This document shows, one piece after another, positions 1,081 to 64,000 of a stretch of 64,000 nucleotides of DNA. The stretch is from Eledone cirrhosa. Taxonomy: Eukaryota. The DNA lies in NCBI GenBank assembly GCA_964016885.1, contig CAXHJY010001084.1, positions 1-64,000 on the forward strand, written 5' to 3'. A program made the translations under genes and the position numbers. The stretch's first letter is position 1, and each line of letters begins with the position of its first letter. Under the pieces are notes generated by a model. The model saw only the letters and a list, made by a program, of their open reading frames with translations. It searched no databases and was not told where the DNA came from.

Positions 1081-1115
1081 ACATACATATATATACATAT
1101 ATATATATACATACA
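384..1115. repeat. (TA)n microsatellite with TACA interruptions
   Basis: Directly visible. Confidence 0.97.
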
Positions 1116-1711
1116 TGATGCGCATGAAAGTCGATAGCTGTATAACAAAGTGCAGGGCAATAAAGATAGACGGTAGTCACGGAATAGGCAGACCTAGAAA
1201 AACCTGGGACGAGCTGATAAACTCCGACATCACACACTTACACCTCTCCAAGACAATGTCACTGGACCGAGACCTTTGGCGGTACTCAGTAACAGAGAAG
1301 ACCCGCCTTACCTAAATATATAGTAAAACCTACTCCAGCCAGTAGGCATCTCTAACAAAATACACCCCGTCCCACCACCCCCACCCCCACCCGATCCACA
1401 CCACCCCGTTCTATGTAAAGTTATGTTGGTGCCGCGCCATCGAGGCCGAAACAAATGAGATCGTGTAGGTGTCACGACAAAAAAACACACAGTCCACGCT
1501 GTAATGTGGCCGTGTAGGCAACACGGTAAAAACCTCCCAGACCCACACTGTAAATGTGGTTGGTGTTAGGAAGGGCATCCAACTGTAGAAAACCTGCCAG
1601 ACAGTCCTATGCGAGCAAGACAATCACTCTTGCCTCAAGTGGGACTACCCCCGTCCAAACCCATGCAAGCGTGGAACACGGACGTTAAACGTTGATGATG
1701 ATGATGATGAT
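1116..1711 (+). mobile_element. RTE-clade LINE, 5'-truncated 3' fragment
   Basis: ORF2 C-terminus MRMKVDSC...[11 protein letters not shown]...DRDLWR, 3' UTR and GGACGTTAAACGTT(GAT)n tail; near-identical to 9206-9785 on the minus strand. Confidence 0.93.
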
Positions 1712-2717: not shown

Positions 2718-3908
<1,191 letters not shown>

Positions 3909-3939
3909 AAGATCAAAAGATGGTTAAAAGAGTTCCATG

Positions 3940-4010
3940 TATTTTATTATGCGCATTTCAAAAACAAATGTCATCATGCAATAACATTTGTGTTTTCATC
4001 AGATAAAACA
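3940..4010 (-). ncRNA. Minimal type I hammerhead ribozyme
   Basis: Minus strand: TGTTTTAT-CTGATGA-AAACACAAATGTTATT-gcat-GATGACATTTGTTTTT-GAAA-T-GCGC-A-TA-ATAAAATA. Confidence 0.8.
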
Positions 4011-4109
4011 GTAAGACATGATTGTGGATAGTGCAGTTTTAAATCAACATATGTTGATTTAAAACTGCACTATCCACAAGTGTTTTTTAACCTTCATATC
4101 ATATCTTCC

Positions 4110-4180
4110 TATTTTATCTGATGAAAACCCAAATGTTATTGCATGATGATATTTGTTTTTGAAATGTGCATAATAAAATA
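4110..4180 (+). ncRNA. Minimal type I hammerhead ribozyme
   Basis: TATTTTAT(4110-4117)-CTGATGA(4118-4124)-16-position stem II-GAAA(4161-4164)-T-GTGC-A-TA-ATAAAATA(4173-4180). Confidence 0.78.
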
Positions 4181-4306
4181 CATGGAACTCTTTTAACCAT
4201 CTTTTGATCTTATATATTATGTATACTCCAGTCCTACAAACTGTAGAGTGCTTCTTATCCGATATCTGCATTGCTTTATTGTACTACAATAAAACTCACC
4301 TCCTAC

Positions 4307-5331
<1,025 letters not shown>

Positions 5332-5495
5332 TAAATCTATTGTAACCTTACTTCTTTTTAAAGTCATTCAAGCTGGAAATATTTCTGTTTCACTTTAGTT
5401 TGCAATATATATTGTATATGTATGACTGTGTTTATTTGTGTGTGTTGATATATATATATATGTCATCATCACATACGCTTTTCCATGCTTGCATT

Positions 5496-5498
<3 letters not shown>
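5332..5498 (+). repeat. Left arm of long-range inverted duplication (partner 13375-13541)
   Basis: 167 bp appear identical to the reverse complement of 13375-13541 (identical translations [33 protein letters not shown] at 5400+ and 13473-); the adjacent TATCAATGTATATG-interrupted microsatellite is also mirrored. Confidence 0.92.
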
Positions 5499-5893
<395 letters not shown>

Positions 5894-8863
5894 TAACTTT
5901 GAATAACTTTGAAATGTTTTGGCCAGTATTGGCCCAGGCCATGTCTAACTTAATAGCACCACCTGGCGAAGTCTTTCAATTCAGGATTTGGGCACCATGG
6001 CCCATTCGAGAAGAGAATTACTGTTTGCGGAGACATATCCGGGTGTGGGTGGTTTGTCCGGGATTACTTGGAGGAATTTGTCCAAAGACTTCTTGAATTT
6101 TGTGTGGTCAGTTTCTGTTTTGACGTGTCCTGGTGTGATGTTGAAGAGAGCAGGGCCGATTGAGGTGAAATAATTGTGCCGTATTGTTGTTATGAGTTGC
6201 GATTTAGATTTTTGAATGGGACGGATAGCACGGGGCCCAAGCCTTGGGTGTATCTTGAAGGCGATGCCAACATCATTTGGGCAGTGATGATGGAACATTT
6301 TCCACATCATGCAGATAATATAACGCTCACGGCGACGTTGGAGTGAGTAAAGTTTCAGGTTTTCCAATCGACCCCAGTAGTCAAGGTCTGACATGCCATC
6401 TATCTTTTTCGTGATTGCCCTTTGAGGAGCTTCAAGTTTCATGATACTTTGTTTCGTGTGGGGAGACCACAGTGGACAACAGTATTCAAGGTGTGGTCGG
6501 GCGAAAGTAGAGAAGAGAAGGATAATGGTGCGGGAATCTCTCGACTGGAAGGTTCTGAGGATCCAGGAACACATTCTGCGGGCCATGTCAACTTTGCTGC
6601 TTATATGCGTGGTCCAGCTTATGTTGCTGTCCACGGTTACTCCCAAGTCTCTGATGTTGTTAGATGCCACGAGAGTTTCCCCGGAGGGAAGGGAGTACGG
6701 GAGTTTCAGAGCATCCTCTTTTCCAAAGTGGATCAGTTCGAATTTGTCTTCGTTCAGTAACATGTTGTTCTTTTCTGCCCATTGGGTAACAGCCAGTAGG
6801 TCTGACTGAAGGCTTATCCGGTCATCCACGCCATTGATGACCTTTTGGAGCTTGGAATCATCAGCGAAAATTTTAATGTTGCTGTGTTTGATGATGTCAG
6901 TGATGTCATTAATATAGATGATGAAGAGAAGTGGGCCCAACACAGTGCCTTGTGGGACTCCACTACTGACTTTGGCTGGGCTTGATTTGACTCCCTCAAC
7001 TACAACATGTTGGGTTCTGTTTGACAGGAAGCTCTTGATCCACTGCAGCAGCTTTCCAGTGACACCAATATTGGACAGCTTTCTCAGTAGAATGTTATGA
7101 TCAACCCTGTCAAAGGCCTTGCTGAAATCAAGGTAGATAACATCAGTGTTGGAACCCTCTCCCAAGGCTCTCAAAATGTCATCAAAGTGATGCAGTAGTT
7201 GCGTCAGGCAATCCCTTCCATTACGGAATCCATGCTGGTTGGAGTTCAGCATATTGTTACTCTCAAGGAAGTGGGTCATTCGCGATCTCACCACTCGCTC
7301 AAATACCTTAATGATATGAGAGGTGAGTGAGATTGGACGGTAATTCACGGCAAGGGATTTGTTTCCCTTTTTGAAAACTGGGACAACAGACTGGGATAGA
7401 AGGTTTTCTGGCACATATCCAGCATCCAGTGAGTTCCGCCACAGATTGGCAAGAGGAGAAGCAAGTTGGTGTTGACACGCCTTCAAGACACAAGCAGGGA
7501 ACCTATCGGGACCTACTGCTGAATTATGCTTGATTTCCTTTATTGCCGCCAAGACATCAGGGGCGCCAAACGTTATGTCCGATAAGGTGTAATGGGGAGT
7601 AACATCGCCGATACAGCCCAGATCGGCCATATCAGGATTGCTGAAAACAGAGCAGTATTGTTTCTGCAGTATCTCACCCATGGTTTTAGCATTGTCTTGA
7701 AGAGTGCCATTTTCATCAATTAGAGGGCCAACAGTAGAGCCAGTGATTTTGTGTTTTTTTGCAAATGAAAAGAACACTTTGGGATTGAGTTTGATCTTCT
7801 CAATGGCCCAGGCCTCTTCAGCTCTTCTCTGATTGTTGATGAGGGACATTATGTTGTTTTGGAGGTTATGTTTTTTAATCTCTAGTGATGAAATGGCAGT
7901 CAAGTTGATGTGTTGCTGCTGACAGTATTTCAGATTGTTGATTTTTTTGTTCGTTCTCTTAATTTTTCTGATGAGCGTTTTTCTATTTCTAGGGATTCTG
8001 CTCTTAGATTTGTTTATAGTTCTTAATGGGGTGTGTTTAGCACATATGTTTGTAACAGTGTCCACAAATGTCTGCCAGGACTTTTTGATGTTAGTGGGTG
8101 TATGAGTGTGCGTGAAGGACCAGTCGACATGTGCAAGATCATGACTGATCGCTTCCCAGTTTGCATTGTGGAAATCCATAGCGTCAAACGGATGGACAGG
8201 AGAAATGACATTGGGTTTGTATATTGGACGGTGGAATCTCAGATCACAGAGAACCATGTCATGATCAGAGAGTAGAGTTTTCTCCACTGCAATATTGTGG
8301 ATATTGTCAGTGTGATTGCTGAAAATTAAGTCTAGGACGTTTTTGTGGCACCTCGTTGGTTCGAGCACTAGTTGGGATAGGAAGAAATCATCCATGAAGT
8401 CAAGAAGCGATTCCACAGCTTCCCTGTCAGAGGTTGAGGCAGAAGAACCTGGTGGCAGGGTGTTTGTGGACCAGTCAACTCCGGGGAGGTTGAAGTCCCC
8501 CATCATTAAGATGTTGTCAGGGTGACACTCTTGGATGAAACACTTTATGCTGTTGAGGCATTCCTTGAAGCATGGTACAGGCGTTTGGGGTGGCCTATAG
8601 AGCCCAACTACTAATAGGTTGTTGGTTTGACTGAATACAGTGACTGCCTCACAGTATCCATTAGTGAATATGTTCATAGCCTCTGTTGAGAAAGAATTAT
8701 GGACATAAATGGCAGTTCCGCCCTTTCTTCTGCCAGCGCGATCAGCACGGATGGCTTTGAAATTTTTCACTTTCACCTCGGCTTCCAAGTGGAGGTTACT
8801 GAGATGGGTTTCAGTGAGGACGAAGAAAGGGATGTGGTTTGGATGGACATCAATCCAGTCCTC
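5894..8863 (-). mobile_element. CR1-clade LINE, 5'-truncated just inside ORF2
   Basis: APE+RT ORF, 87-bp 3' UTR with GGCCA-atac-TGGCC hairpin and terminal (TTCAAAGTTA)2 repeat; both ends abut (TA)n. Confidence 0.92.
5981..8863 (-). CDS. Non-LTR retrotransposon ORF2 (apurinic endonuclease + reverse transcriptase), CR1 clade, N-terminus truncated
   Basis: Open frame of 961 codons. APE motifs VLTETHL (upstream of the called TTG), GGTAIYV, LYRPP, GDFNLP, LDLIF, SDHD. RT motifs [43 protein letters not shown]1-type C-terminus [13 protein letters not shown] and [11 protein letters not shown]. Confidence 0.93.
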
Positions 8864-13374
<4,511 letters not shown>

Positions 13375-13541
13375 ACCAATGCAAGCATGGAAAAGCGTAT
13401 GTGATGATGACATATATATATATATCAACACACACAAATAAACACAGTCATACATATACAATATATATTGCAAACTAAAGTGAAACAGAAATATTTCCAG
13501 CTTGAATGACTTTAAAAAGAAGTAAGGTTACAATAGATTTA
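13375..13541 (-). repeat. Right arm of long-range inverted duplication (partner 5332-5498)
   Basis: Reverse complement of 5332-5498; continues into unique DNA at 13542, so probably the original copy. Confidence 0.92.
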
Positions 13542-18902: not shown

Positions 18903-19065
18903 ATAAATTTAATAATAAATAGATAAAAATTAAATAAATAAATAAATAAATAATATATAAATAAAAATAAAAACAAAATAAAAATAAAATAAAAATAAAA
19001 AAAAATAAAAAAAAAATAAAAAATAAATAAATAAAAAAATAAAAATAAAATAAATAAATAAATAA
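18903..19065. repeat. A-rich (AAAT)n low-complexity tract
   Basis: Directly visible. Confidence 0.9.
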
Positions 19066-21000
19066 TTTTATTTTAAAATGAAACTGGAAAATCAATCATT
19101 GGCAGTGTCACTCTTGGAAAATATATCTTCATATGCTAACACTTCCAGCCCATGCTAACATATATTTTAAACCCATAAAATGTTAAAAATACATAAATAA
19201 ATGCTTAAATGAATACTCAAATGAAAAAACTGCAATTCAAGGGACAAGCTCAGAAATATCACACCCCCTTAAGTGAAAATTAAAAAAAGAGGAGATGGCT
19301 AATAACTATTTAAATCTGCAGCAGTTCCTGAAAGCTTTCAATCAATTAGCTTTCCAATCATTCCATTATTTGTTTACAGACATTTTGGAATTGAAAAGAT
19401 TACCTTTGTGATTCTCATGCATCTATTCTCTCTCTATATCCAATATGAGACACGGTTCAGAGCTTGATTCAGCATATTAACACAAAATATACTGTTTCTA
19501 TTTAGATTTCAGCTTGATGAAAGAAAATCCATTTCCTCTCCCCAAACCATTCCACCCCAAAGTATGTGCCATGGATTTTAATAAATTTCCAGCCAGTAAT
19601 AAATTCAAGCAAAGTAAAGCAGATTGTTTATGTTACATCCAGCTGCATTTTATTTAATAATGAGGTATTATTTTCAGAACAAATCAAACCAATATGTACA
19701 CAACGCATTCATGCACACACAAACGCAAGCAGACACATACCTTCTTGCCAAAAAATTGTTATTACTTTTTATTTTATTAACAAATATTGTATAGACATAT
19801 CAAATAAATGTATTTAATACGAGCCGGAAAAAATATTTGACAGAAATATTTTAATATAATTTTCATTTCAGAAAGCAAAGTAACCACAATTACTGAGAGA
19901 AAAACTGTATATAAGAGGAATCAAATGTAGTACTCAAAAATAAGACTGCACCAATATGCATATGGATGATGACACATTTCAGGTATTTTTATGAAAAAAA
20001 TGTTCTTTGAATGACTGCAGTATTATCATCTTCATCATTGTCATTTCCATATAATTTTGCTTTGGAGAACATGTCATTTGGAAAAGGTTACTAAGAGTAA
20101 TATCAAAATTTGCAAGACAAATATTTGCCTACTCATCTGGAAACACTGACTCTCAAGTCAAAAATATTTCCTCACTTACCAGCAGACACTGACTTTAAAG
20201 TAAAAAATATTTCCCCATTAACCTTCAAGACCATATTCTAATGAAAGACATTACCTATATATTTTATTCATTTTTAAAATGATCGAAAATTGTTGAGGGA
20301 TTTACTAGGTTAACTAATTTTTTTATTACAAAGCTATTGTTTAAAACAGACAGGTTCTTACTAAAATTATGATAGAAGTTTACATTTATATACAATCACA
20401 TTTAAAAGAGTAATTTTGTATCATAGAAGCAGGGACAGTCTAAGTTGGATTGGTACAAAAAGTGATAATGCTCTCTTTTACCATCCTTTTCATAAATAGT
20501 CACAAGTTAAGGTTCATGTCCTTTGATAATGCACACATTGACAGAAAAAATTATCAGGTGCAAAATCACAAGAGAAATAGGCAAATTAAAGCTTACCCTT
20601 TTATTTGTAAAACTTTTTCGGGAATGTTTTCTTTCAGACATCAGCTTCAGACTTAATCTGAAAAAATAAAGGATTATACTTAGTAAAATGTTATATGAAA
20701 TATTGAAAAGGGGTCTGAGCCAACCTCACCTCCATGTTTTGCTAATTAGGCTTTGTGTATGAAAAAATATTTTGATGAATGACAATACACACACACACAC
20801 ACACACACACATATACGTGCATATGTATGTCATAAATGTTGATCACATATTTGCTGACCAGACATGATGTGGCACGAAATGAAAAAAAATAGAGAAATGC
20901 TGAAATTGAATGTACAGCTACTTGTAGGCTTTACTCATTAAATCTTGATCCAAAATGATAACAATCAACAGAACAACACTTGAAAGAAATACATTAAATA

Positions 21001-21163
21001 AAAATGTCAAATGCTTGAAGTGGATGGAGACTGTGGAAAGAGAGAGAGAGAGACTGTGGAAAGAGAGAGAGAGAGAGACTGTGGAAAGAGAGAGAGAGAG
21101 AGACTGTGGAAAGAGAGAGAGAGAGAGACTGTGGAAAGAGAGAGAGAGAGAGAGACTGTGGGA

Positions 21164-21194
<31 letters not shown>

Positions 21195-24100
21195 GGAAAG
21201 AGAGAGAGAGAGAGACTGTGGAAAGAGAGAGAGAGAGACTGTGGAAAGAGAGAGAGAGAGAGACTGTGGAAAGAGAGAGAGAGAGAGACTGTGGAAAGAG
21301 AGAGAGAGAGAGACTGTGGAAAGAGAGAGAGAGAGAGACTGTGGAAAGAGAGAGAGAGAGACTGTGGGAAGATAGCAAGACTTGGGAAGATAGCAAGACT
21401 TGGGAAGAGAGCGAGAGACTTGGAAAGAGAGAGAGAGAGATTTGGAAGGAGAGAGAGATTTGGAAGGAGAGAGAGAGAGATTTGGAAGGAGAGAGAGATT
21501 TGGAAAGAGAGAGAGAGACTTGGGGAGAGAGAGAGACTTGGGAAGAGAGAGAGACTTGGGAAGAGAGAGAGAGACTTGGGAAGAGAGAGAGAGAGAGAGA
21601 GACTTGGGAAGAGAGAGGGAGAGAGACTTGGGAAGAGAGAGGGAGAGAGACTTGGAAAGAGTGAGAGAGAGACTTGAAAAGAGAGAGAGAGACTTGGGAA
21701 GAGAGAGAGAGAGACATGGGAAGAGAGAGAGAGAGACTTGGGAAGAGAGAGAGAGACTTGGAAAGAGAGAGACTTGGGAAGAGAGAGAGAGACTTGGGAA
21801 GAGAGAGAGACTTGGGAAGAGAGAGAGAGACTTGGGAAGAGAGAGAGAGACTTGGGAAGAGAGAGAGAGACTTGGGAAGAGAGAGAGACTTGGGAAGAGA
21901 GAGAGACTTGGGAAGAGAGAGAGAGAGAGACTTGGGCAGAGAGAGAGAGAGAGAGAGAGACTTGGGAAGAGAGAGAGAGAGATATTGGGAAGAGAGAGAG
22001 AGACACTTGGGAAGAGAGAGAGAGAGACTTGGGGAGAGAGAGAGAGAGACTTGGGGAGAGAGAGAGAGATTTGGGAAGAGAGAGAGAGAGATTTGGGAAG
22101 AGAGAGAGAGAGATTTGGGAAGAGAGAGAGATTTGGGAAGAGAGATTTGGGAAGAGAGAAAGAGAGAAAGAGATTTGGGAAGAGAAAGAGAGAAAGAGAT
22201 TTGGGGAGAGAGAGAGAGATTTAGGAAGAGAGAGAGAGGGAAGAGAGAGAGAGGGACTTGGAAAGAGAGAGAGAGAGAGAGGGACTTGGAAAGAGAGAGA
22301 GAGAGAGGGACTTGGAAAGAGAGAGTGAGAGAGGGACTTGGAAAGAGAGAGAGAGAGGGACTTGGAAAGAGAGAGAGAGAGGGACTTGGAAAGAGAGAGA
22401 GGGGGACTTGGAAAGAGAGAGAGGGGGACTTGGAAAGAGAGAGAGGGGGACTTGGAAAGAGAGAGAGGGGGACTTGGAAAGAGAGAGAGAGGGACTTGGA
22501 AAGAGAGAGAGAGGGACTTGGAAAGAGAGAGAGAGGGACTTGGAAAGAGAGAGAGAGGGACTTGGAAAGAGAGAGAGAGGGACTTGGAAAGAGAGAGAGA
22601 GGGACTTGGAAAGAGAGAGAGAGGGACTTGGAAAGAGAGAGGGAGGGACTTGGAAAGAGAGAGGGAGGGACTTAGAAAGAGAGAAGGACTTAGAAAGAGA
22701 GAGAGAGGGACTTGGAAAGAGAGAGAGAGGGACTTGGAAAGAGAGAGAGGGACTTGGGAATAGAGAGAGAGCGAGACTTGAGAAGAGAGAGAGAGACTTG
22801 GGGAGAGAGAGAGACTTGGGAAGAGAGAGAGAGAGACTTGGGGAGAGAGAGAGAGAGAGACTTGCGAAGAGAGAGAGAGTGACTTGGAAAGAGAGAGAGA
22901 GAGACTTGGGAAGAGAGAGAGGGACTTGGGAAGAGAGAGAGGGACTTGGGAAGAGAGAGAGGGACTTGGGAAGAGAGAGAGGGACTTGGGAAGAGAGAGA
23001 GGGACTTGGGGAGAGAGAGAGAGACTTGGGGAGAGAGAGAGAGACTTGGGGAGAGAGAGAGAGACTTGGGAGGAAGAGAGAGACTTGGTAGGAAGAGAGA
23101 GACTTGGGAGGAAGAGAGAGACTTGGGAGGAAGAGAGAGACTTGGGAAGAGAGAGAGAGAGAGACTTGGGAAGAGAGAGAGAGACTTGGGAAGAGAGAGA
23201 GAGACTTGGGAAGAAGAGAGAGACTTGGGAGGAAGAGAGAGACTTGGGAGGAAGAGAGAGACTTGGGAGGAAGAGAGAGACTTGGGAGGAAGAGAGAGAC
23301 TTGGAAAGAGAGAGAGACTTGGAAAGAGAGAGACTTGGGAAGAGAGAGAGAGACTTGGGAAGAGAGAGAGAGACTTGGGAAGAGAGAGAGAGACTTGGGA
23401 AGAGAGAGAGAGACTTGGGAAGAGAGAGAGAGACTTGGGAAGAGAGAGAGAGACTTGGGAAGAGAGAGAGAGACTTGGGAAGAGAGAGGGACTTGGGAAG
23501 AGAGAGAGGGACTTGGGAAGAGAGAGAGGGACTTGGGAAGAGAGAGAGGGACTTGGGAAGAGAGAGAGGGACTTGGGAAGAGAGAGAGGGACTTGGGAAG
23601 AGAGAGAGGGACTTGGGAAGAGAGAGAGAGGGACTTGGGAAGAGAGAGAGAGGGACTTGGGAAGAGAGAGAGAGACTTGGGAAGAGAGAGACTTGGGAAG
23701 AGAGAGAGAACTTGGGAAGAGAGAGAGAGACTTGGGAAGAGAGAGAGACTTGGGAGGAAGAGAGAGACTTGGGAAGAGAGAGAGACTTGGAAAGAGAGAG
23801 AGAGACTTGGAAAGAGAGAGAGGGACTTGGGAAGAGAGAGAGGGACTTGGGAAGAGCGAGAGGGACTTGGAAAGATAGAGAGACTTGGAAAGATAGAGAG
23901 ACTTGGGAAGAGAGAGAGACTTGGGAAGAGAGAGAGAGAGACTTGGGAAGAGAGAGAGAGACTTGGGAAGAGAGAGAGAGACTTGGGAAGAGAGAGAGAC
24001 TTGGGAGGAAGAGAGAGACTTGGAAAGAGAGAGAGACTTGGAAAGAGAGAGAGACTTGAAAAGAGAGAGAGAGACTTGGGAAGAGAGAGAGAGACTTGGG

Positions 24101-25461
24101 AAGAGAGAGAGAGACTTGGGAAGAGAGAGAGAGACTTGGGAAGAGAGAGAGAGACTTGGGAAGAGAGAGAGAGAGAGACTTGGGAAGAGAGAGAGAGAGG
24201 GACTTGGAAAGAGAGAGAGAGAGGGACTTGGAAAGAGAGAGAGGGACTTAGAAAGAGAGAGAGAAGGACTTGGAAAGAGAGAGAGAGGGACTTGGAAAGA
24301 GAGAGAGGGACTTGGAAAGAGAGAGAGAGAGACTTGGAAAGAGAGAGAGAGGCTTGGAAAGAGAGAGAGAGGCTTGGAAAGAGAGAGAGAGGCTTGGAAA
24401 GAGAGAGACTTGGAAAGAGAGAGAGAGAGACTTGGGAATAGAGAGAGAGCGAGACTTGGGAATAGAGAGAGAGCGAGACTTGGGAATAGAGAGAGAGCGA
24501 GACTTGAGAAGAGAGAGAGAGACTTGGGAAGAGAGAGAGAGAGACTTGGGTAGAGAGAGAGAGAGACTTGCGAAGAGAGAGTGAGAGAGACTTGCGAAGA
24601 GAGAGAGAGAGACTTGCGAAGAGAGAGTGAGAGAGACTTGGGAAGAGAGAGAGGGACTTGGGAAGAGAGAGAGAGGGACCTGGGAAGAGAGAGAGAGGGA
24701 CCTGGGAAGAGAGAGAGAGGGACTTGGGAAGAGAGAGAGAGGGATTTGGGAAGAGAGAGAGAGGGATTTGGGAAGAGAGAGAGAGAGGGATTTGGGAAGA
24801 GAGAGAGAGGGATTTGGGAAGAGAGAGAGAGGGATTTGGGAAGAGAGAGAGAGGGACTTGGGAAGAGAGAGAGAGGGACTTGGGAAGAGAGAGAGAGGGA
24901 CTTGGGAAGAGAGAGGGACTTGGGAAGAGAGAGAGAGGGACTTGGGAAGAGAGAGAGAGAGAGAGGGACTTGGGAAGAGAGAGAGAGAGAGGGACTTGGG
25001 AAGAGAGAGACATAGACTTGGGAAGAGAGAGAGAGAGACTTGGAGAGAGAGAGAGAGAGAGAGAGACTTGGAAAGAGAGAGAGAGACTTGGGAAGAGAGA
25101 GAGAGACTTGGGAAGAGAGAGAGACTTGGGAAGAGAGAGAGAGACTTGGGAAGAGAGAGAGAGACTTGGGAAGAGAGAGAGAGAGACTTGGGAAGAGAGA
25201 GAGAGACTTGGGAAGAGAGAGAGAGACTTGGGAAGAGAGAGAGAGACTTGGGAAGAGAGAGAGAGACTTGGGAAGAGAGAGAGGGACTTGGAAAGAGAGA
25301 GAGAGACTTGGGAAGAGAGAGATGGACTTGGAAAGAGAGAGAGAGGGACTTGGAAAGAGAGAGAGAGGGACTTGGAAAGAGAGGGACTTGGGAAGAGAGA
25401 GAGGGACTTGGGAAGAGAGAGAGAGAGACTTGGAGAGAGAGAGAGAGAGAGAGACTTGGAA

Positions 25462-25493
<32 letters not shown>

Positions 25494-26490
25494 GGAAAGA
25501 GAGAGAGAGACTTGGGAAGAGAGAGAGAGACTTGGGAAGAGAGAGAGAGACTTGGGAAGAGAGAGAGAGACTTGGGAAGAGAGAGAGAGACTTGGGAAGA
25601 GAGAGAGAGACTTGGGAAGAGAGAGGGGGACTTGGGAAGAGAGAGGGGGACTTGGAAAGAGAGAGAGAGACTTGGGAAGAGAGAGATGGACTTGGAAAGA
25701 GAGAGAGAGGGACTTGGAAAGAGAGAGAGAGGGACTTGGAAAGAGAGGGACTTGGGAAGAGAGGGACTTGGGAAGAGAGAGAGGGACTTGGGAAGAGAGA
25801 GAGGGACTTGGGAAGAGAGAGAGGGACTTGGGAAGAGAGAGAGGGACTTGGGAAGAGAGAGAGGGACTTGGGAAGAGAGAGAGGGACTTGGGAGGAAGAG
25901 AGAGGGACTTGGGAGGAAGAGAGAGGGACTTGGGAGGAAGAGAGAGGGACTTGGGAGGAAGAGAGAGGGACTTGGGAGGAAGAGAGAGGGACTTGGGAGG
26001 AAGAGAGGGACTTGGGAGGAAGCGAGAGACTTGGAAAGATAGAGAGACTTGGAAAGAGAGAGAGACTTGGGAAGAGAGAGAGAGACTCGGGAAGAGAGAG
26101 AGAGACTGTGGAAGAGAGAGAGAGACTTGGGAAGAGAGAGAGAGACTTGGGAAGAGAGAGAGAGAGACTTGGGAAGAGAGAGAGAGACTTTGGAAGAGAG
26201 AGAGACTTTGGAAGAGAGAGAGACTTGGGAGGAAGAGAGAGACTTGGGAGGAAGAGAGAGACTTGGAAAGAGAGAGAGACTTGGAAAGAGAGAGAGACTT
26301 GGAAAGAGAGAGAGACTTGGAAAGAGAGAGAGACTTGGGAAGAGAGAGAGAGACTTGGGAAGAGAGAGAGAGACTTGGCAACACATGGGATGATGTAAAG
26401 AATAACCTCAAGAAACTGAACCTCATGAAATGACACAATAGAGTTGACTGGCAATATGTTCTAATACAAAAGACCCACCTACCTGTACAA
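21001..26490 (+). pseudogene. Old RTE ORF2 C-terminal relic split by the GA satellite
   Basis: Left flank reads KCQMLEVDGDCGK and right flank TWDDVKNNLKKLNL...VDWQYVLIQKTHL, collinear with the young RTE segment [33 protein letters not shown]...[13 protein letters not shown]. Confidence 0.7.
21026..26379. repeat. 5.3-kb polypurine satellite: (GA)n punctuated by CTGTGGAA / CTTGGGAA / GGGACTTGGAAA, units about 16-26 bp
   Basis: Directly visible; extreme purine/pyrimidine strand asymmetry. Confidence 0.97.
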
Positions 26491-28022
26491 TGTATGCATT
26501 GAGTGACTGGAGACTATGGTATTGACAATCGGAGACAATATAGGGTTCGTCAATATTACGTGAGATAATTATATGAGGTAAAGCCTTTACCACAAAAATA
26601 CAGCAGTAAATATAGAGTAATGTAAATGCTAAAGAGTTAAATTAAAGAAACTCATTGTTAAGTCCTCTATAAAAATTCCATAGTTTGAATCAACATCTAC
26701 ACCCACCGACACCACTCCAACTGTTAATGAATATGTTTGTGTAAGCAGAAACTACTAAAAAAAAATAAACAAGAATACTATAATATAAATATATAAGTAA
26801 TAGTTCAACCAATAGTTTAGGGAGAATTTATAACATTTTATTAGGTTTACATCCTTTTCAACAACTCAATTAAAATCTATAGATAGGGATGGTTAAAAAA
26901 ATTATAAAAGTTATAAATTCTCCCTAAAAACCCTGGTTCGAATATTACTTATTTATACCCTGTAACCTTACACTTGTACAATATTTTGCTTTTTTATTCT
27001 ATGGATTACACCTTGAATGAATTTGTTCATTATATTTACAGATCAGACTAACATTGAGCTATAAACTTCTTGATATACCTCAACTAAGTTAATCAGTCAG
27101 CTTATTAAATTTTTGTTTATATAGAAAATGTAGGGATCCAAATGTAGGAAAGACTGTTATAGCAGTTGATTGATATAAATAATAGCCTAGAAAATTGGGT
27201 AAAATACCACTATAGAAAAAAAAATTAGACCAATAGTTACTATGAAGAAGAAAACTCTGTATTGCTCGAATTCCAATCAAGTGTTGTAACCATTTAGACC
27301 TCTGACAACAATTTCTGTCTAAATTAGAAGCTATATACGAACAGCTTGGATGTAAAACACTCTTAGATATAAACTATTGAAGTGCTGGGAAATATGAAAT
27401 TCTTTATAGAAAATGCAGGAATCCCAAATATAGAAAAAACTGTAACAACATTCGATTGCTATAAATAAAAACCTAGAAATTGGGTAAAATAATCCTATAG
27501 ATAAACACTACAGGCTTCCACACAGTTTCCATCTACCAAATTTCAGTCACAAGGCATTAATCAACCTGAAACCACGTGGTTGTGAAGCAAACTCCTTAAC
27601 CACACAATCATTATATATATTTTTTCTGTACTGTATTATCTCTACAAGATAATTTTTCACTCAGAGCATGATAAGCTATTCTATTAATGTGCAATATGAT
27701 AAAATGTTCAAGCTCAATTAATTGTTTACTATAAGAAGTCTCCCAACAGGACTCTAACAGTGTATTTATTGTTAGTGGAATAACTGTATTAAACAGTTGC
27801 ACTACAGAATTACTGCCATTCTCTAATCTCAAATTAGGTGTGCCATGTAAAACTTTTCTATTGCTATTTTAATTGTGCTACTTTATATCCAGTAGATAAT
27901 TTACCTGTCCACTTAGTACTAGCAGGTGTATCAGTCATCCACCCACCCCACACTATTTCACTGTTACTAATGTTGGTTTCTTTCTAAATTAACTATTAAT
28001 GATTTTAATGTAAATGATATTA

Positions 28023-29229: not shown

Positions 29230-30571
29230 CACAGGTTCTCAACCCATTTAGGCTAAACGCCCCCTTTTGTCCGTCAAAATCACGAAACGCCCCCCCCCCC
29301 CCCCCTCCCTTATTTTTCCATTTTTCAATATACTACTGATTTTCATATCAGTAGATTACTAAAAAATTGATTAACAATATTCCAAAGATGTGTGTATTAT
29401 CTGATTATGTGATGTATGTGGTCCTAGATGTGTGTATTATCTGATTATGTGATGTATGTGGTCCTAGATGTGTGTATTATCTGATTATGTGTTGTATGTG
29501 GTCCTAGATGTGTGTATTATCTGATTATGTGATGTATGTGGTCCTAGATGTGTGTATTATCTGATTATGTGTTGTATGTGGTCCTAGATGTGTGTATTAT
29601 CTGATTATGTGATGTATGTGGTCCTAGATGTGTGTATTATCTGATTATGTGTTGTATGTGGTCCTAGATGTGTGTATTATCTGATTATGTGATGTATGTG
29701 GTCCTAGATGTGTGTATTATCTGATTATGTGATGTATGTGGTCCTAGATGTGTGTATTATCTGATTATGTGATGTATGTGATCCTAGATGTGTGTATTAT
29801 CTGATTATGTGATGTATGTGGTCCTAGATGTGTGTATTATCTGATTATGTGATGTATGTGGTCCTAGATGTGTGTATTATCTGATTATGTGATGTATGTG
29901 GTCCTAGATGTGTGTATTATCTGATTATGTGGTGTATGTGGTCCTAGATGTGTGTATTATCTGATTATGTGATGTATGTGGTCCTAGATGTGTGTATTAT
30001 CTGATTATGTGTTGTATGTGGTCCTAGATGTGTGTATTATCTGATTATGTGTTGTATGTGGTCCTAGATGTGTGTGCTACCCACTACTGTTTTTTCTTTT
30101 CTTTTTTTTATTTGTAATATTATTTATACAATAGGGAATAAAATAGATCTACATAGTGTTAACTCATTGCAGCTGAGTCAATAATTTCAGACATGAAATA
30201 CATTGTTATCGGTGAAGGAAAGATAAGATTCTAACTGGCTGCACTCAAAGTGTCTTTGACCCAGTTGACTGGGTTTTTCCATTTTTAGGATCTCGATTAC
30301 CGGTTAATGTCTCAATTACCGGACATGCCTGCACACCTGCTAACAGCTGCGGTCAGACTATAGTTTTGCTGTCTGCAAGCTCATTCAAATGCATTCACAC
30401 TGGCTGTCTCAAAGACATACAAATATGGCTTATAAATCTTACCAAAATAAAGAGCCTTCCAGTCCCCCTCTAACCCCCCTCCCCCAGCTCCCCCCCCCCC
30501 CCCCCCCCCCAACGCGACCTTGCTCCCAAACGCCCCCCGGAGGTGCATATGCCCCCTGTTGAGAACCTTTG
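29230..30571. mobile_element. Non-autonomous hAT (Charlie-like) transposon
   Basis: TIRs CACAGGTTCTCAAC / GTTGAGAACCTTTG; perfect 8-bp TSD GTTTAGAC (29222-29229 and 30572-30579); inserted in an RTE tail relic. Confidence 0.88.
29386..30076. repeat. 40-bp minisatellite, 17 full units
   Basis: Unit AGATGTGTGTATTATCTGATTATGTG(A/T/G)TGTATGTGGTCCT, head-to-tail with no spacers. Confidence 0.97.
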
Positions 30572-32333: not shown

Positions 32334-32455
32334 ACCCAGTACCAATAATAATGGCTTCAAATTTAGGTAGAAATCATGCAATTTAACCCTTTAACATTTA
32401 CATTACTCTATATTTACTGTTGTATATTCACAGTAAAGGTTTTACCTCACATAAT

Positions 32456-32631
32456 TATCTCACTAGAGAGTCGGACGCCATGCTTTGTAGCATAGAGTTA
32501 TGCCCCTTTATGGTCCGAGTTCAAATCCTGCTGAGGTTAACTTTGCCTTTCATCCTTACGGGGTCGATAAAATAAAGTACCAGTAATGCACTGGGTAATT
32601 TCTGGCCTTGTGCCAAAAGTAGAAACAATAA
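32456..32631 (+). mobile_element. tRNA-derived SINE with 14-bp TSD, inserted in a piggyBac-type MITE
   Basis: TSD TTACCTCACATAAT (32442-32455, 32632-32645); the flanks rejoin to match the intact MITE at 47583-47746. Confidence 0.85.
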
Positions 32632-32694: not shown

Positions 32695-34740
32695 TCAGTT
32701 ACAGGCGGTGCCTACTAACTGAAGGTTTCGCTGTGGGGTTCGCTTTGCAAGGCGGGTCTTCTGTATTACTGCGTAGCACCAAAGATCTCGGTCCAAAGAT
32801 CTCAGTGACATTGTCTTAGAGAGGTGTAAGTGTGTAAGGTCGGAATTTATCAAATCGTCCCAGGTTATTCTGGGTCGACTTACTCTGTAACTTCCCTCAA
32901 TTTTGATCACCCAGCACTTTTTTATACAACTGTCATCTTTCATGCGCATCACATGACCATACCAACGTAGTCTTCTCTCGAGTAAACAGTATCTGATCCC
33001 TCTTATTCCTAATTTCTCACTTAGTTCATTTATGCTTTACCGTTCACGTATATTACTATTACACATCCAACAAAGCATGCATGCTTCGTTCCTCTCCAAT
33101 CTGCGCAGATCCTCTAGACACAATGCCCATGTCTCACTGCCATGTAACATTGCTGTTCATATACAGGCATCATACAATCTGCCTTTCATTTTTAGAGAGA
33201 AACCTTTAGTGGCCAATAGTGGTTTAAGCTCTCTGAACTTTTTCCATCCCGTTCTGACTCTGGCTACTGTACTTTCAGAGCACCCTCCACCACTGCTGAT
33301 TTTGTCACCCAGGTAACGGAAGGTGTCCACTATTTCTATAGAACCATCTGGGCAATAGAAGGAGCTAGTATCCTGTGGGCACTTGCTACTTATTGTACCT
33401 GAGCATCGGCCATATATAAAATCTATGTTCTTAGATAGCTTACCTGTGATCCCACTACATTCTTTATGTACCCATACTTTGCATTTGGGACATAAAATGG
33501 AATTTCTGCCTACTCCTTTCCTACACACTCAGCATGGCCATTTCCCAGAGGGTACCTGTGCCCTATTTTCCTTTCTACATACTAGAACTTTAGTCTTAGA
33601 CAAGTTAACTTTAAGGCCTTTTGATTCTAGGCCATGTTTGGAATTTCTTCTCTAGTTCGGCCATAGATTCAGCTATGAGAGTTAGATCATCTGCGTATAG
33701 AAGTTCCCTTGGGCAGCCAGTCTTGAACTCCTCTGTTATAGCTTGAAGTGCAATAATAAATAGGAGGGGGCTAAGGACAGAGCCTTGATGAACACCAACT
33801 TTTACGCTAAATTCTTCACTATATTCGTTGTTAATTCTAACCTTGCTGACTGTTTCTTTATACATGGCTTGTATAGCTCTCACAAGCCATTCATCAACAC
33901 CTAGTTTTCTAAGAGCCCACCAGATAATGGAGCGGGGAACTCTGTCAAAGGCTTTCTCCAAGTCAACAAAAGCTAAGTATAGGGGTTTACTTTTAGCTAG
34001 GTACTTTTCCTGTAGTTGTCGTACAAGGAAAAGAGCGTCTGTGGTACTTTTACCTGACACAAACCCAAACTGATTTCATCTAGATCAGTTCGCTCTCTGA
34101 CTAGTTGCTCTATAACTCTTTCTGTGACCTTCATGACCTGGTCAACCAATTTAATGCCTCTATAGTTTCCCCTATCTAGGGCATCTCCTTTACCCTTGTA
34201 GCAGTTAATGATGATGCTGCTATGCCAGTCATTTGGTATGACCCCATTCTGTATGAATTGGTTTACTATCCGGGTGACCATAGTGTGTCCCACCATTACA
34301 GATGCTTTCAGCATTTCGGCAACTATCTCCGAAGGCCCAGCTGCTTTGCCTGTCTTCATATCTTTGATTGCCTTACTTACTATACTACCTTTAACTTGCA
34401 CTGCTGGTCCCTCTATTGGATTGATTTGAGGCAGACTATCTTTGTCCCATTTATTCTCCTCATTTAGTAGTCTCTTGTAGTGACACTTCCAAGCTACCTT
34501 CTTATCAGCATCAGTGATGACAAGTACACCATCATCATTACGGACACACTTCTCCCCGACAATATCACAGTTTTCCTTTACACATTGTCTTGCAATCCTG
34601 AACGCCTCACGTTTTTGGTCCTCGCGCTGTAGAACATGCTTGAACTTTCTTTCCTCTGCTTCCCCTCTTTCAAAGTACACTTGTCTCCTAGCTTCTCTCC
34701 TGGCCACTTGATAGTGTTCTCTACTTCCCCCATTCTTGCA
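32695..34740 (-). pseudogene. Older RTE LINE copy, frameshifted RT/PHD region
   Basis: Four ORF pieces collinear with 9586-11607 but diverged and broken; family 3' UTR absent. Confidence 0.9.
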
Positions 34741-35000
34741 AAAGAGGGAGGGGCACAGTGTGGGTGATCGGGTGCTTTAGCGTTGGAAAAGTTTTAGAAT
34801 GAAAATGAATCAACTGGGGAAGAATTAGACTACCAAAATGTTGATAAGAGAAAAATTAACGCTGCAGGGTTTCTGGTGGATGAGTGACTAGATATTAAGC
34901 AAACAGAAAGGAAGAGATGGAGTTTAATATTGCAAAGTGTACTGCCCTGACTATGAAGAGAAGTAGGCTTGTATATAGTGGTGGGATTGAGTTACTTTGA

Positions 35001-37030: not shown

Positions 37031-38949
37031 TAATATCAAGAAGAGTATGAATCTATCTGTATAACTGTCGAATTGTATTAAGCTTAGCAGTAATAGACAA
37101 AATGGATGGAAAAAGGATAAAATAAAAACTAAGGCCACATGATAGTTCAGCATACAAAATTTAGATGATATAAAATGACTAAACAATTAATTCTCAAATG
37201 AGTTCTAAAGATGACTATGATAAAAATCAAAGAGCTAGTTAGTAACAAAATCCTAGTGCTATATAGGAAGTCATTTTTCTTGATATATAGAAATAAACAG
37301 GATAAGTTGATACTGTATCCTTGATGCAAGCAATGATTACTTACAATGGGCAATGGAATCACTTGCAAAATGACAGAAAATAGGATCATTTGATGTGATC
37401 AATATACAGTTATAGTTAATAGTATCTGTTATTGAGGTGGTCAAATTAGTGCTGAAGGTGGCTGCAGTGAAAGTATAGGAACTGGACTCAGAGAGGAATG
37501 GAACATATTCATATAGTTATTTGCCTCCTTTAACAACAAATTGTGTCTTTTTTTTACATGAAAACTATGGTATGAGGCATGTGTGAAAAAGTATCATGCT
37601 ACATGATGGCAAAACATGGCTAAACCTGTGCTCTGAGAATAAAGACATTTCCAATATTTGTTCTATGTGGAGTTATAGACATTTCTGTCTCTGATGTCCT
37701 CCAAAATGCAGTGACCCATGATCGACCCATTAAAAATGTAACCAAGGGATATAAAACAAAAACATTTTTTTAGTCTTTTAAATTATACTAAATAAAACAA
37801 TACAAAGTCTGTTAGATGATCGTTTTGGTGCCACAATGAAAAAGCACACAGTCCACCCTGTTAAATGATCATTTTGGTGCCACAATGAAAAATACACTTT
37901 CTCTTCTTCAACTAGTCACTACCTTCAATTCTATATTTATATCTGCATGTTATCTTTCTGATAAATGAGTCATTAAACCTTTCTAATTTTCTATTGGCAC
38001 ATTTATGACTTGACTGAGTGGATGAATGATTGACTGATTTTAAATAATAAGCAAGTGGCTGAGAAAAAAAGAGTGTCATATCTAGCCATTGCTTGGTGAA
38101 CCAACCACATTTTATGTGAATGGATGCAAATAATATTTTTTTTTTGCTTGATTAATGAAAGATTAAAAGTTAACATATCTTTTTATCTTTCTTTCTTATC
38201 TTTCATTTCTACAAATATTCTGGAGTGCTTGATAATATAATTTCACAATTTAGGTGTCTAGATCTTTTTTCTTTGTCACTAAGTCACAATCTTGCATCCC
38301 ATTTCCACACTGGCATGGGTTAGATAGGTTGTCACGATGGGTTGGGCAACTCATCTTACTCATTACGTTCCACATTTGGCATCATTTCTATGGCTAGAAT
38401 TCTATACTTAATGACAACCACCTTACAGGGTGTCCCAGGTGTGTTTTTCATGACAACTACTACCACTTGACTGAGTACACTGGGTGTATTTTATCGTGGT
38501 ACCAACACTAGATAGTTGTCACATACTAGGATAAACTGAAGAGTCTTCTCAAATCCTATATTATCTATTTTGCATTTTTTTTTTAATCTAAAATCTGCTG
38601 TTACGGGTTAGATAAAAAAAAATGTTATTTCGTTTAGTTGTATTTCTTTTTTCATGAATCCATCATCATCACTAAACAAATCAAGTCAGGTGACCATGTC
38701 TTGCTCTGTTTCTGGCTTCGTTTCTATGGCTTGATGCCCTTCCTAACACCCAAAACATTACTAATTTGTTCTCTTCATATTTCATTCTCCCATCCTTCCT
38801 TTCACTCTGTCTTCCTCCCATCCTTTGTCCTCTTTTCTATCTATTCTTCTCTCTCTCTCTTTTCTGTTATTCTCCTTCATTCTCTTTTTCAACCAACCAC
38901 TACCTTCAATTCTATATATCTAAATGTTATCTTTGATTAGCAGAAGAAA

Positions 38950-39335
38950 GAAGTTGAGAAACATTATTGAGAGTTGATGAATGTGGAGAATGAATGGAAG
39001 GAAGAGAGATACTCCCAACAGACTCAACAGAGGGGCCAGCTATTGAATCTAACAATTATAGGGTGAAAGAAGCAATAAAACAAAATGGAAAAGCTAGCTA
39101 CAGTCAAGGATAGTTGCTGAGATGTTGAAACCATCTGATGAAGTAGGAGTCAAGCTATTCACCCACATAATCAATCAAGTGATACATGGTGGTTTCATAC
39201 ACAATGACTGATGGAGCATGTTCATTATTTGTTACAAGGGAAAAGGTGATGCACTTGTCAAGAACAACTACAGAGGCATAAGACTGATGGATCAAGTTAT
39301 GAAAGTGACAGAAAGAGTTTGGGCACAACTAATAA
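38950..39335 (+). pseudogene. Highly degraded RTE RT relic
   Basis: Recognisable VAEMLK and [27 protein letters not shown] codons. Confidence 0.75.
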
Positions 39336-40782: not shown

Positions 40783-41339
40783 GTTGGTGCATAATTATTG
40801 CGGATTTTTTTCAACAAATTTTATTTAACAAAAACATTAACAATATTTAACAAAAACATCTTTAAATGGCGGTCGGGTTTTTCTCTTTTCAGAATGTGCA
40901 TCGAAAATCCTATCCTCATTCGTCATATTATGCTCTACCACTTCGAGAAAGGTTGGAATGCAGCCTCAGTCATTTCGCAATCTCAATGAACTTTTTGGTG
41001 AAGGAACAATCAGCAAAAGCCAAGTTGAAAGATGGTTCAGGAGGTTCAAATCGGGCGATACAAACCTCGCAGATGAAGAAGGAAGAGGTCGACCATCAAA
41101 TTTCAATGACCAGGCACTTTTGGCAGCAGCGGAAGAGGACGAAAGCTTGACAACGAGAATGTTGGCCGAAGACTTCAATGTGGACCATTCGACCATCGTT
41201 CGTCGTCTCAAAAAGCTCAGAAAGCTCGGAAATTGGCTGGGTGGGTCCCCCACGAACTCTCCGATAACAACAAAGCCGAACGTCTTTTATTGAATAAAAT
41301 TTGTTGAAAAAAGGCCGCAATAATTATGCACCAACCCAA
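40779..41339 (+). mobile_element. Internally deleted mariner transposon (TIR resembles Hsmar1/cecropia type)
   Basis: TIR TTGGGTTGGTGCATAATTATTGCGG (25 bp perfect, imperfectly extended to about 50 bp), TA flanks within a (TA)n tract. Confidence 0.93.
40894..41283 (+). pseudogene. Mariner transposase N-terminal DNA-binding domain remnant
   Basis: MCIENPILIRHIMLYHFEKGWNAA /frameshift/ ...VERWFRRFKSGDTNLADEEGRGRP...TTRMLAEDFNVDHSTIVRRLKK /frameshift/ WVPHEL (41242-41259); DD34D catalytic domain absent. Confidence 0.88.
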
Positions 41340-41699: not shown

Positions 41700-41905
41700 T
41701 AGTCTTCTTCTTACTCTTATTGCCCAATAAGCCACAGAGCATAAAAGGATCCTTGTCTTCAATTTACACAATCAGCTGCGACATCTTGCATAGTTTCCCA
41801 GTCCAGTCCAATCTTCTGGAGATCTTCTTTGAAAGTTGAGTGCCAAGTTTTCTTGGTCTCCCTTTTTTCCACTTACCACCAACTGGGATCCATCTCATTG
41901 CCACA
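41700..41905 (-). pseudogene. RTE-like ORF2 C-terminal relic (another family)
   Basis: Minus strand AMRWIPVGGKWKKGRPR.TWHSTFKEDLQKIGLDWE. Confidence 0.6.
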
Positions 41906-47400: not shown

Positions 47401-47582
47401 TTTAACAAGGAAAAGTAGAATTATATTTTATTTCACTCTGTAACATAATGAAAAACAGACATATAACACAGAATGATAATTTCCATTAAAGTACACCTAT
47501 GTGTACAGACTATGATTTTGCATTGTCTAGGGAATATTCCAAGATTCAGTCTTATCTAATATTTTAGAGGTAATTGATTTAA

Positions 47583-47746
47583 CCCTTTAGCATTTACATT
47601 ACTCTATATATACTTTTGTATTTTCGTGATAAAGGCTTTATCTCACATAATATCGAATCTATGAGATTTTGATATTATTTATTTTGAGAACAATACCTTA
47701 ACAACAGTATGAGTGGCCTGTTATGGCCGGTTTAAATGCGAAAGGG
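47583..47746. mobile_element. piggyBac-type MITE (family B), intact
   Basis: TIRs CCCTTTAGCATTTA / TAAATGCGAAAGGG, TTAA on both sides; second, interrupted copy from 32387. Confidence 0.82.
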
Positions 47747-48656: not shown

Positions 48657-49547
48657 TCTATAAAGCTCAGTGTTTGGTCAAGCTCCTTCGTTATAGAAAT
48701 CTACGATATAGAATTTCTTCAATTGAAATTTACAATTCAGTATTCGAAATAGTTTCGATTGCGTCTTGACGCAGATAATTTTTTCAATTTCACCCACAAT
48801 TACGCAAAAAATAGATAAAACTCAATATTTTACGATTTTCCTGTCATTTAAACTGCTAAACTCTTTCCACTACCATTCAAAATCTATACAACTTCATACT
48901 TTCTGCTACTTTCTCTTTCCAAGCTTGATGGTGATACTGTCCGTTCACACCACTCCCTACTGTCTTAAATTTAGAAAACACATATCCTCTATGAGGTTAC
49001 TAAACCTGCTAGAAACAGCAGCTAACTCTCCCCCATATCACACCCCTCCCTACTGTCTTAAATTTAGAAAACATATCTTCTATGAGGTCACTAAACCTGC
49101 TAGAAACAGCAGCTAACTCTCCCCCATATCACACCACTCCCTACTGTCTTAAATTTAGAAAACACATATCCTCTATGAGGTCACTAAACCTGCTAGAAAC
49201 AACAGCTAACTCTCCCTCATATCACAACCCTCCCTACTGTCTTAAATTTAGAAAACACACAGACAACCATGCAGAACAACTCCATCGCAGCTCTGTTGTT
49301 CGGCTGGCATCGTCTACGCGCGTGTTGCGCAAGTACTGTGAAACAATAAATTTCAACACTCTTTTGCATAATATCCATAGGCGAAACTACAATTGTCACT
49401 GCTGGCGCAGCTCCTGCTTCGGCAGTCCAGGTCTGCAATTCATTCACCCAGTGCCTGGCAGACAAAAAAAGTGCTGCCATAAAATGGGTGGTGCAACCTA
49501 ACTTTGGTAACTTAATGACCCCGAGCAACGCCAGGCTTTAATGCTAG
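48657..49547 (+). mobile_element. Non-autonomous Helitron-like element
   Basis: A|TC 5' end, subterminal GC-rich CCCGAGCAACGCCAGGC, CTAG|T 3' end, no TSD; the 5' boundary is inferred. Confidence 0.6.
48945..49259. repeat. 91-93-bp tandem repeat, about 3.4 copies
   Basis: Units start at 48945, 49038, 49129 and 49222. Confidence 0.93.
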
Positions 49548-51845: not shown

Positions 51846-52088
51846 TATGGACATGTAATACACATGGAGGATGACCCCTGGGTAAAGAAGTTCCAAGAAA
51901 TCCCAGTGGAAGGAAGACTTACTAAAGGAACACCACGAAAATCATGGGCGGAGGTGGTGAGAGCTGACCTCAGATTGGTGAAGCTCACAGGGGGGATGAC
52001 GAAGGACTGTCACGAATGGAGAGATGCTGTACTGGATAGGACCCGTCCCACCCTTGCAAGCAAGGAAAAGCAGACGTAAAATGAGGAT
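51846..52088 (+). mobile_element. RTE 3' fragment of a short-UTR family
   Basis: YGHVIHMEDDPWVKK...GTPRKSWAEVVRADL...EWRDAV, running directly into tail GCAGACGTAAAATGAGGAT. Confidence 0.75.
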
Positions 52089-52224
52089 ATATATATATAT
52101 ATATAAGTTATTCTGGGTTGAATCGGAGGTAATCACAGTAAGTAAGGTACTCAATACATAGCAGAGTATAAATGTTTTAATATAGTAGCTCTTCTATATT
52201 AAATATATATATAGAGAGAGAGAG

Positions 52225-52424: not shown

Positions 52425-52537
52425 CTCTCTCTCTCTCTCTACATATATATATATACATACATACATACATATATATATACATACATATATATATATATAA
52501 ATACATATATACATACATACATATATATATATATAAA

Positions 52538-53406
52538 GAAAAAGTTCAGAGAGCTTATACCACTATTAGCTGCTAAAGGGTTCTCCCTAAAAATGAAAGG
52601 CAGGCTGTACGATGCCTGCATACGAACAGCAATGTTGCATGGCAGTGAGACCTGGGCATTGTGTGCAGAGGATATACGCAGACTAGAGAGAAACGAAGCT
52701 TGCATGCTCCGCTGGATGTGTAATAGTAATATACGTGAACGACAAAGCATAAACGAACTAAGGAAAAAATTAGAAATAAGAGGGATCAGATGTTGTTTAC
52801 TAGAGAGAAGGCTACGTTGGTATGGTCACGTGATGCGCATGAAGGATGATAGCTGTATAACAAAGTGCAGGGCAATAAAGATAGACGGTAGCCACGGAAT
52901 AGGCAGACCCAGAAAAACCTGGGACGAGCTGATAAACTCCGACCTCACACACTTACACCTCACCAAGACAATGTCACTGGACCGAGACCTTTGGCGGTAC
53001 TCAGTAATAGAGAAGACACGCCTTGCCAGTAGGCATCTCTAACAAAATACACCCCGTCCCACCACCACCACCCCACCCCATCCACACCATCCACACCACC
53101 CCGTTCTATGTAAAGTTATGTTGGTGCCGCGCCATCCAGGCCGAAACAAATGAGATCGTGTAGGTGTCACGACAAAAAAACACACAGTCCACGCTGTAAT
53201 GTGGCCGTGTAGGCAACACGGTAAAAACCTCCCAGACCCACACTGTAAATGTGGTTGGTGTTAGGAAGAGCATCCAACTGTAGAAAACCTGCCAGACAGT
53301 CCTATGCGAGCAAGAAAATCAATCTTGCCTCAAGTGGGACTACCCACGTCCAAACCCATGCAAGCGTGGAACACGGACGTTAAACGTTGATGATGATGAT
53401 GATGAT
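52538..53406 (+). mobile_element. RTE LINE, 5'-truncated
   Basis: [10 protein letters not shown]...EKTRLASRHL* (stop at 53042), 3' UTR, (GAT)n tail. Confidence 0.93.
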
Positions 53407-53827
<421 letters not shown>

Positions 53828-57909: not shown

Positions 57910-57964
57910 ATATATAATACATACATATATATATACATACATGTATATATACATACATATATAT

Positions 57965-57997
<33 letters not shown>

Positions 57998-57999
57998 CA

Positions 58000-58035
<36 letters not shown>

Positions 58036-58934: not shown

Positions 58935-64000
<5,066 letters not shown>

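Follow-up and report, generated by a model that had tools for sequence, protein, structure and literature searches.

We analysed 64,000 nucleotides (nt) of genomic DNA from Eledone cirrhosa (contig CAXHJY010001084.1, positions 1 to 64,000 of the forward strand; hereafter the window). This stretch of animal DNA is rich in repeats, among them numerous TA and ATAC arrays and several copies of long interspersed nuclear elements (LINEs), and its repeat landscape appears to resemble that of an octopus genome. A GA-rich tandem array at 21029–26382 is framed by two short pieces of decayed coding sequence, which are likely to stem from the 3′ end of one RTE-type retrotransposon, and the array probably grew inside it. 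A first-pass annotation, made from the letters alone, had described a GA satellite in this position; the array is present, and the translations given for its left (21002–21040) and right (26371–26478) flanks are reproduced.

Structure of the GA-rich array

The array measures 5,354 nt, with one strand 85% purine. Tandem Repeats Finder reports it at 21041–26378 with a period of 20 and 259.9 copies, and our own parse yields 255 cores between 21030 and 26382, forming 254 full units of 14–37 nt (median 20). Each unit consists of a 10–11-nt core followed by a variable (AG)n spacer, and the spacers together account for 2,789 nt, or 52% of the array. By unit size the array is a compound minisatellite, a class defined by head-to-tail units of 10–100 bp (PMC3389668), rather than the satellite it had been called: with 5,354 nt, 255 cores and unique flanks on both sides it is too small at this locus for satellite DNA in the traditional sense, and none of its three main cores has an exact copy elsewhere in the 64-kb window. 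The number of cores does exceed the ~100-unit limit of one minisatellite convention, for which the source itself notes a lack of consensus (PMC6947457).

There are two core types, the first 14 units being left-type and the remainder one base shorter. The left-type block (21029–21379, plus strand) contains twelve units with the core ACTGTGGAAAG and two with an A>G variant of it, each with (AG)n and 19–35 nt long; as had been proposed, these 14 consecutive units copy codons of the left flank, namely the four that precede the Gly of G-R-P. At the boundary with the following block (21361–21417, plus strand), three units carry impure spacers, ATAGCAAG twice and then a spacer with one C. These spacers span the switch of core type, and two of the only three two-pyrimidine spacers among all 254 lie here. 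The long right-type block (21380–26370, plus strand) comprises 240 units, mainly with the cores ACTTGGGAAG (110) or ACTTGGAAAG (55) and (AG)n, whose variants occur in local runs; a single isolated left-like core sits at 26105. All four combinations of the two diagnostic core sites are present, in 12, 2, 55 and 110 exact cores.

The 52 unit variants lie in ordered runs, neighbours being identical in 133 of 253 cases compared to 25.5 expected (maximum 40 in 2,000 shuffles), and 23 of the 254 units fall off the even-length ladder, 19 of them in one recurrent variant class. A multi-unit internal duplication at 25038–25785 (plus strand) involves 17 units in copies of ~390 and ~360 nt; its unit-level score of 24.9 exceeds the null maximum of 16.0 (200 shuffles), and 353 of 358 aligned bases are identical, with 32 gap positions; the copies differ from each other. 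The array closes with a terminal core (26371–26382, plus strand) that has no spacer, lies in frame at the position of the R-P-R-K codons and is directly followed by the T-W codons. This core differs at two sites from the nearest common core, that is, at 2 of 10 sites versus 3.3% of sites in interior cores relative to their nearest main type. The purine strand holds 238 purine runs of at least 12 nt and 24 loose G-quadruplex motifs, versus 14 such motifs on both strands of the other 58.6 kb.

The flanking relic and its reading frame

The left piece of the relic (21002–21040, plus strand) consists of 13 codons that fall on columns 91–103 of a profile. This profile was built from 175 proteins related to the C-terminal part of the young RTE-family copy in the window, the same copy that had supplied the comparison peptide of the first-pass annotation. 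Its last four codons (21029–21040) are at the same time the first core of the array. The right piece (26383–26478, plus strand) reaches the end of the RTE open reading frame (ORF), lacks three codons present in its relatives and carries a stop at 26431–26433, the one in-frame TGA of the translated right flank (26371–26478). Without the array, the recognisable relic (21002–26478) amounts to ~150 nt, or ~50 codons. The protein closest to it is P0001, with 21 of 49 residues identical. Among all the relatives, the only named ones are Hydractinia proteins (43–46% identity).

That the flanks belong together emerges from matching them as a pair. In an anchored, frameshift-aware profile alignment the two reach 34.8 bits, a score attained by none of 6,672 random flank pairs (maximum 32.7); with every array unit excluded, the joint match is 30.0 bits, reached by three of these pairs. 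When the relic is read with an X in place of the array, it scores 20.2 bits, compared to a best of 9.0 among 5,000 shuffles. Across the 70 array-by-strand flank pairs of the window, this pair has the best two-sided score, 32.0 versus 24.4 for the next, while the only total above it (64.3) was owed to a young RTE copy on a single side. At the DNA level, the paired flanks align to three RTE copies of the window with p = 0.003–0.007, and the right piece matches an older copy (32750–32768) at 17 of 19 nt. Single flanks are weak: the left and right are matched by 28 and 96 of the 6,672 random flanks, and the left flank alone is not significant against the three window copies at the DNA level (p 0.3–0.4). 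Since a blind six-frame scan of the window with the profile (1,278 frames), which did find the young RTE copies, singled out neither flank, the flanks count only jointly. Jointly, the similarity is convincing and beyond chance, suggesting that they are consecutive, collinear pieces of one RTE-type C-terminus, as had been claimed from their translations.

Homology further upstream (20815–21001), suggested by eye, was not borne out by frameshift-aware alignment, and no recognisable tail follows the relic's end at 26478. When the relic's 3′-end DNA was aligned with three copies in the window, 42, 55 and 4 of 500 shuffles scored at least as well.

The relic segment is collinear with proteins carrying K-C...V-x-G...G-R-P-R-K-T-W...D-L...W, a C-terminal motif that we take to be a mark of the RTE clade; no hit carried the RTE name. 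Seven of 15 longer relatives are endonuclease-and-reverse-transcriptase proteins of 1,006–1,076 amino acids with both PF03372 and PF00078, the young window copy encodes RVT_1 and a PHD-like finger, and all four young copies end in (GAT)n. On the basis of this motif, the relatives' domains and these tails, the relic is likely to be the 3′ fragment of an RTE-type retrotransposon, and may represent a truncated LINE copy or else a short interspersed nuclear element (SINE) tail. The segments had been assigned to an RTE ORF2, a term that we drop, RTE elements having a single ORF (PMC2887409). A motif search for RTE-2_OV in eight supplement files of PMC9115989 returned no match to the relic, and among prokaryotic genome contigs searched for RTE-relative DNA, 40 pattern matches were obtained and none confirmed.

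The reading frame also fixes where the array is seated. A freely fitted gap between the flanks, with the array units excluded and 0–11 codons allowed, comes to 10 codons. This equals four codons of the first core, one further codon and the five made up by the terminal core plus Thr, and the array therefore occupies a single codon, the Gly of G-R-P, ~35 codons before the end of the RTE ORF. No coding length is lost on balance at the junction, and 27 nt have become 5,354 nt, a 198-fold expansion. The earlier figure of about 25 bp expanded roughly 200-fold thus holds for length, but the 52% of the array that is (AG)n would come from dinucleotide slippage rather than from copied codons.

Both ends keep the coding register. 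On the left, 15 of 332 positions in the left-type block (~4.5%) read x-x-G-[RK], in the register that continues the left flank. On the right, 120 of the 5,329 12-mers of the array differ from R-P-R-K codons by at most two mismatches and 582 by at most three (2–11% of positions), and nearly all of the 120 are in the core register that abuts T-W. The array ends in frame and without a spacer, and it has a polarity, left-type cores adjoining the left flank and right-type cores extending to the right flank. The later units had been likened to G-R-P-R-K codons. They do resemble R-P-R-K, from which two transitions separate the common core, but they have not retained the Gly codon, and T-W lies outside the array; the terminal core itself has three mismatches to R-P-R-K codons and the common core two.

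Origin of the array

The left stretch of x-x-G-K codons and the right stretch of R-P-R-K share an AGAC start and a GG..AAG end and lie ~15 nt apart; the first and terminal cores differ by three edits over 12–13 nt and have their first five bases in common. We infer that this near-repeat is older than the array, and that the array probably grew in place by slippage between these near-identical 12–13-nt coding stretches on either side of the Gly codon. An origin in situ, as proposed in the first-pass annotation, is likely, with the G-R-P-R-K-T-W region of the RTE-type 3′ relic as its site. The steps suggested here are reconstructed from one haplotype. Misaligned replication or repair between the near-repeats would have duplicated the DNA between them, and the join AAG-AG-AC would have provided an AG seed of two to three copies from which dinucleotide slippage could generate the variable spacer. 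Template switching on one side or the other of the two diagnostic sites may then have produced left-type, right-type and both hybrid cores, and single-unit and multi-unit duplications would have brought the array to 5.35 kb and homogenised it in patches, with the terminal core escaping. The 85% purine strand may have aided instability through triplex or G-quadruplex structures. Both signatures of published birth models, short direct repeats bounding the unit and an incomplete terminal unit, are present (PMC3389668; PMC6947457). The odd spacers at the boundary of the core types may have arisen by edge decay or may be what is left of the original junction; decay from (AG)n requires three changes, and the original-junction idea requires an extra codon. 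Among the 126 of 175 relatives chosen for carrying a G-R-P motif, the spacing is canonical in 91 and one residue longer in 21.

Several observations weigh against this reading. The joint score exceeds the null maximum by little (34.8 versus 32.7 bits), though the null DNA includes unmasked old RTE relics. A database search with the right flank for the relic's subfamily gave four candidates, none at E ≤ 10, which leaves the ancestral codons hypothetical. In the window, young RTE copies use other codons at this position and lack the near-repeat, and of the residues of the left core, Asp occurs in only 4 and Cys in only 1 of the 126 relatives. Other rare variants common to distant blocks of the array stayed within the null (11.8 versus a maximum of 16.0). 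The right-type core is two edits away from the R-P-R-K codons and likewise two from the left core, both changes from R-P-R-K bring it nearer to the left core, and only a single edit, a deletion, separates the A variant of the right-type core from the left core. The four-haplotype pattern can also come from one recurrent transition. The descent of the common core is therefore a tie between the R-P-R-K codons and the left core minus one base.

In a rival account, only the left codons contributed: x-x-G-K was duplicated, one unit lost a G, this variant swept rightwards, and an array core joined to what remained of R-P-R-K makes up a chimeric terminal unit. The one-deletion distance of the A variant speaks for it, as does the last left-type unit, in which A>G is already present and whose odd spacer recurs in the first right-type unit. 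However, R-P-R-K is matched more closely by the common core than by the terminal core, and the array ends spacerless and exactly in frame, so we regard this account as unlikely; it still requires the same pre-existing near-repeat, and it alters the lineage of one core, not the origin in situ. It is quite unlikely, too, that an active RTE master copy or RTE-tailed SINE was the birthplace of the seed or first duplication, which was then retrotransposed here, the array then being one locus of a multi-locus minisatellite family that was only lengthened at this site. Recognition of the 3′ end alone agrees with such a history, as in 5′-truncated LINE copies and LINE-tailed SINEs (PMC5786205); RTE elements have spread microsatellite families in Lepidoptera (PMC2887409), and 185 of 5,932 human transposable-element-derived clusters are multi-locus (PMC3389668). 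Against it, six other RTE copies in the window, though of other subfamilies, are readable at the G-R-P position without an array, and no tRNA-like SINE head was detected in 19000–28000, where decayed heads would escape detection.

Insertion of a foreign, dispersed GA-rich repeat into the relic, or conversion of the relic by one, at a site of chance similarity might be entertained in a window full of long simple-repeat arrays. Such a repeat is not expected to keep the coding register at both ends, preserve the codon count and match its core type to the adjacent flank, all of which hold here, and no exact copy of the three main cores lies outside the array within the window; we consider this highly improbable. 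That the length or inner order of the array is an assembly artefact, or the RTE match a product of chance, is hardly to be credited. A long-read bias against simple purine-rich repeats has been reported (bioRxiv 10.64898/2026.07.13.738322), but the ordered runs of unit variants, the few units off the even-length ladder and the mutual differences between the internal duplicate copies argue against an artefact, and the random-pair, shuffle and 70-pair flank tests reject chance.

Growth in place has many precedents, and the birth that had been called directly readable is so in outline, not in the order of its events. In humans, 7,276 of 31,472 minisatellites (23%) are transposon-derived, mostly at single loci, and the birth models account for 6% of the transposon-derived arrays (PMC3389668). 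These arrays (Ahmed and Liang 2012, PMC3389668) resemble the one described here in that units from part of a retroelement expanded in place and left birth signatures, but the Alu-derived ones average 2.3–2.4 units versus 255, and here each unit includes a variable microsatellite of its own and coding DNA is the source, which is why the reading frame can serve as a ruler. The mouse (GGCAGA)n variable number tandem repeat family, from SINE B1, and Ms6-hm/Hm-2, from MaLR long terminal repeats (LTRs), likewise have a short purine-rich unit and a retroelement near-repeat (PMC9659126, PMC6947457), although their SINE and LTR sources are non-coding and the B1-derived array forms a family, whereas ours is one locus so far, with a compound unit and two core types. 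Repeats from LINE coding sequence include PROsat and Pvc 20 (LINE-1 ORF2) and chicken HinfI (CR1); these come from other LINE clades and, in the account of PMC9659126, are linked to them by sequence similarity, not by an array seated between its own neighbouring codons. A combination of RTE 3′ region and simple repeats is also found in the RTE-associated microsatellite families (Tay et al. 2010, PMC2887409) and in RTE-2_OV of Octopus vulgaris (PMC9115989), but RTE-associated microsatellites lie in the 3′ untranslated region or tail and spread by retrotransposition, while the present array is inside the ORF. The accessible text of PMC4758252 adds nothing further on ties between RTE elements and microsatellites. 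Our literature search, of limited coverage and thus weak as evidence, turned up neither a minisatellite reported from within an RTE ORF nor an account of the birth of a cephalopod minisatellite.

The initial step in the birth of a minisatellite is difficult to observe, and here the decayed frame fixes the ancestral spacing to the codon. With its 255 units the array is a clean worked example and shows microsatellite and minisatellite growth nested in each other; its size and codon-exact seating are unusual, while the seeding of tandem repeats by transposon debris is otherwise ordinary. No function is implied, and the array is most likely neutral, unstable DNA. The general picture of minisatellite birth stays as it was unless this codon turns out to be a recurrent birthplace. 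There is a small but appreciable chance that the G-x-x-G-K/R-G-R-P-R-K codons of this subfamily are a built-in purine-rich seed, and that arrays have arisen at this one codon in many dispersed copies, independently of each other. If so, they would form parallel, frame-anchored births from a known ancestor, in which the order of events and the step from few to hundreds of units could be read and counted, and an AG seed that came first could be told apart from a unit duplication that came first.

The surrounding window

Four near-identical young RTE-type copies lie at 1113–1710 (plus strand), 9210–11607 (minus), 52535–53405 (plus) and 56514–57908 (plus), with a PHD-like finger after the reverse transcriptase (RT). 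Each is 5′-truncated directly at a TA/ATAC array and has its (GAT)n tail followed by another TA-type array. Because they are bounded in this way, insertion into TA microsatellites is suggested. Two other LINEs (~5900–8770, minus; 53825–56130, plus) have TA/ATAC arrays on both sides, and each lies beside the tail of an RTE copy. One encodes an endonuclease and RT and is presumably CR1/L2-like; the other is an RT element with an RHD...PD motif, which we assume to be R4/Dong-like. Three LINE types thus nest in the same kind of TA/ATAC array. A Dong element has been reported in Octopus bimaculoides (PMC9115989). Older RTE-type relics of several ages and subfamilies occur at 32695–34776 (minus), 51846–52090 (plus), 41777–41895 (minus), 38929–39334 (plus) and 37205–37640 (plus), two of which are readable at the G-R-P position, both without an array.

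Other repeats include a minisatellite of 17 units of 40 bp (29386–30075; 98% matching units), which has no unit match elsewhere in the window and no RTE match in its flanks, and a 93-bp repeat of 3.4 copies (48945–49259; 94% matching) whose unit was not found elsewhere in the window. A scan of 17 non-repeat ORFs for host exons near the array found only a mariner-type helix-turn-helix, in a Mariner/Mos1-type transposase fragment at 40841–41290 (plus strand; HTH_48, E 1e-10). An 80-nt dispersed repeat, 88% identical, is present at 26560–26645, 32380–32463 and 47574–47651, one copy starting ~80 nt after the right end of the relic. Finally, TA/ATAC arrays of 1.8–6 kb extend over 2721–5892, 11609–13375 and 57908–63989. 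Multi-kilobase simple-repeat arrays are thus common in the window, suggesting a genome-wide tendency to expansion rather than a peculiarity of the GA locus.

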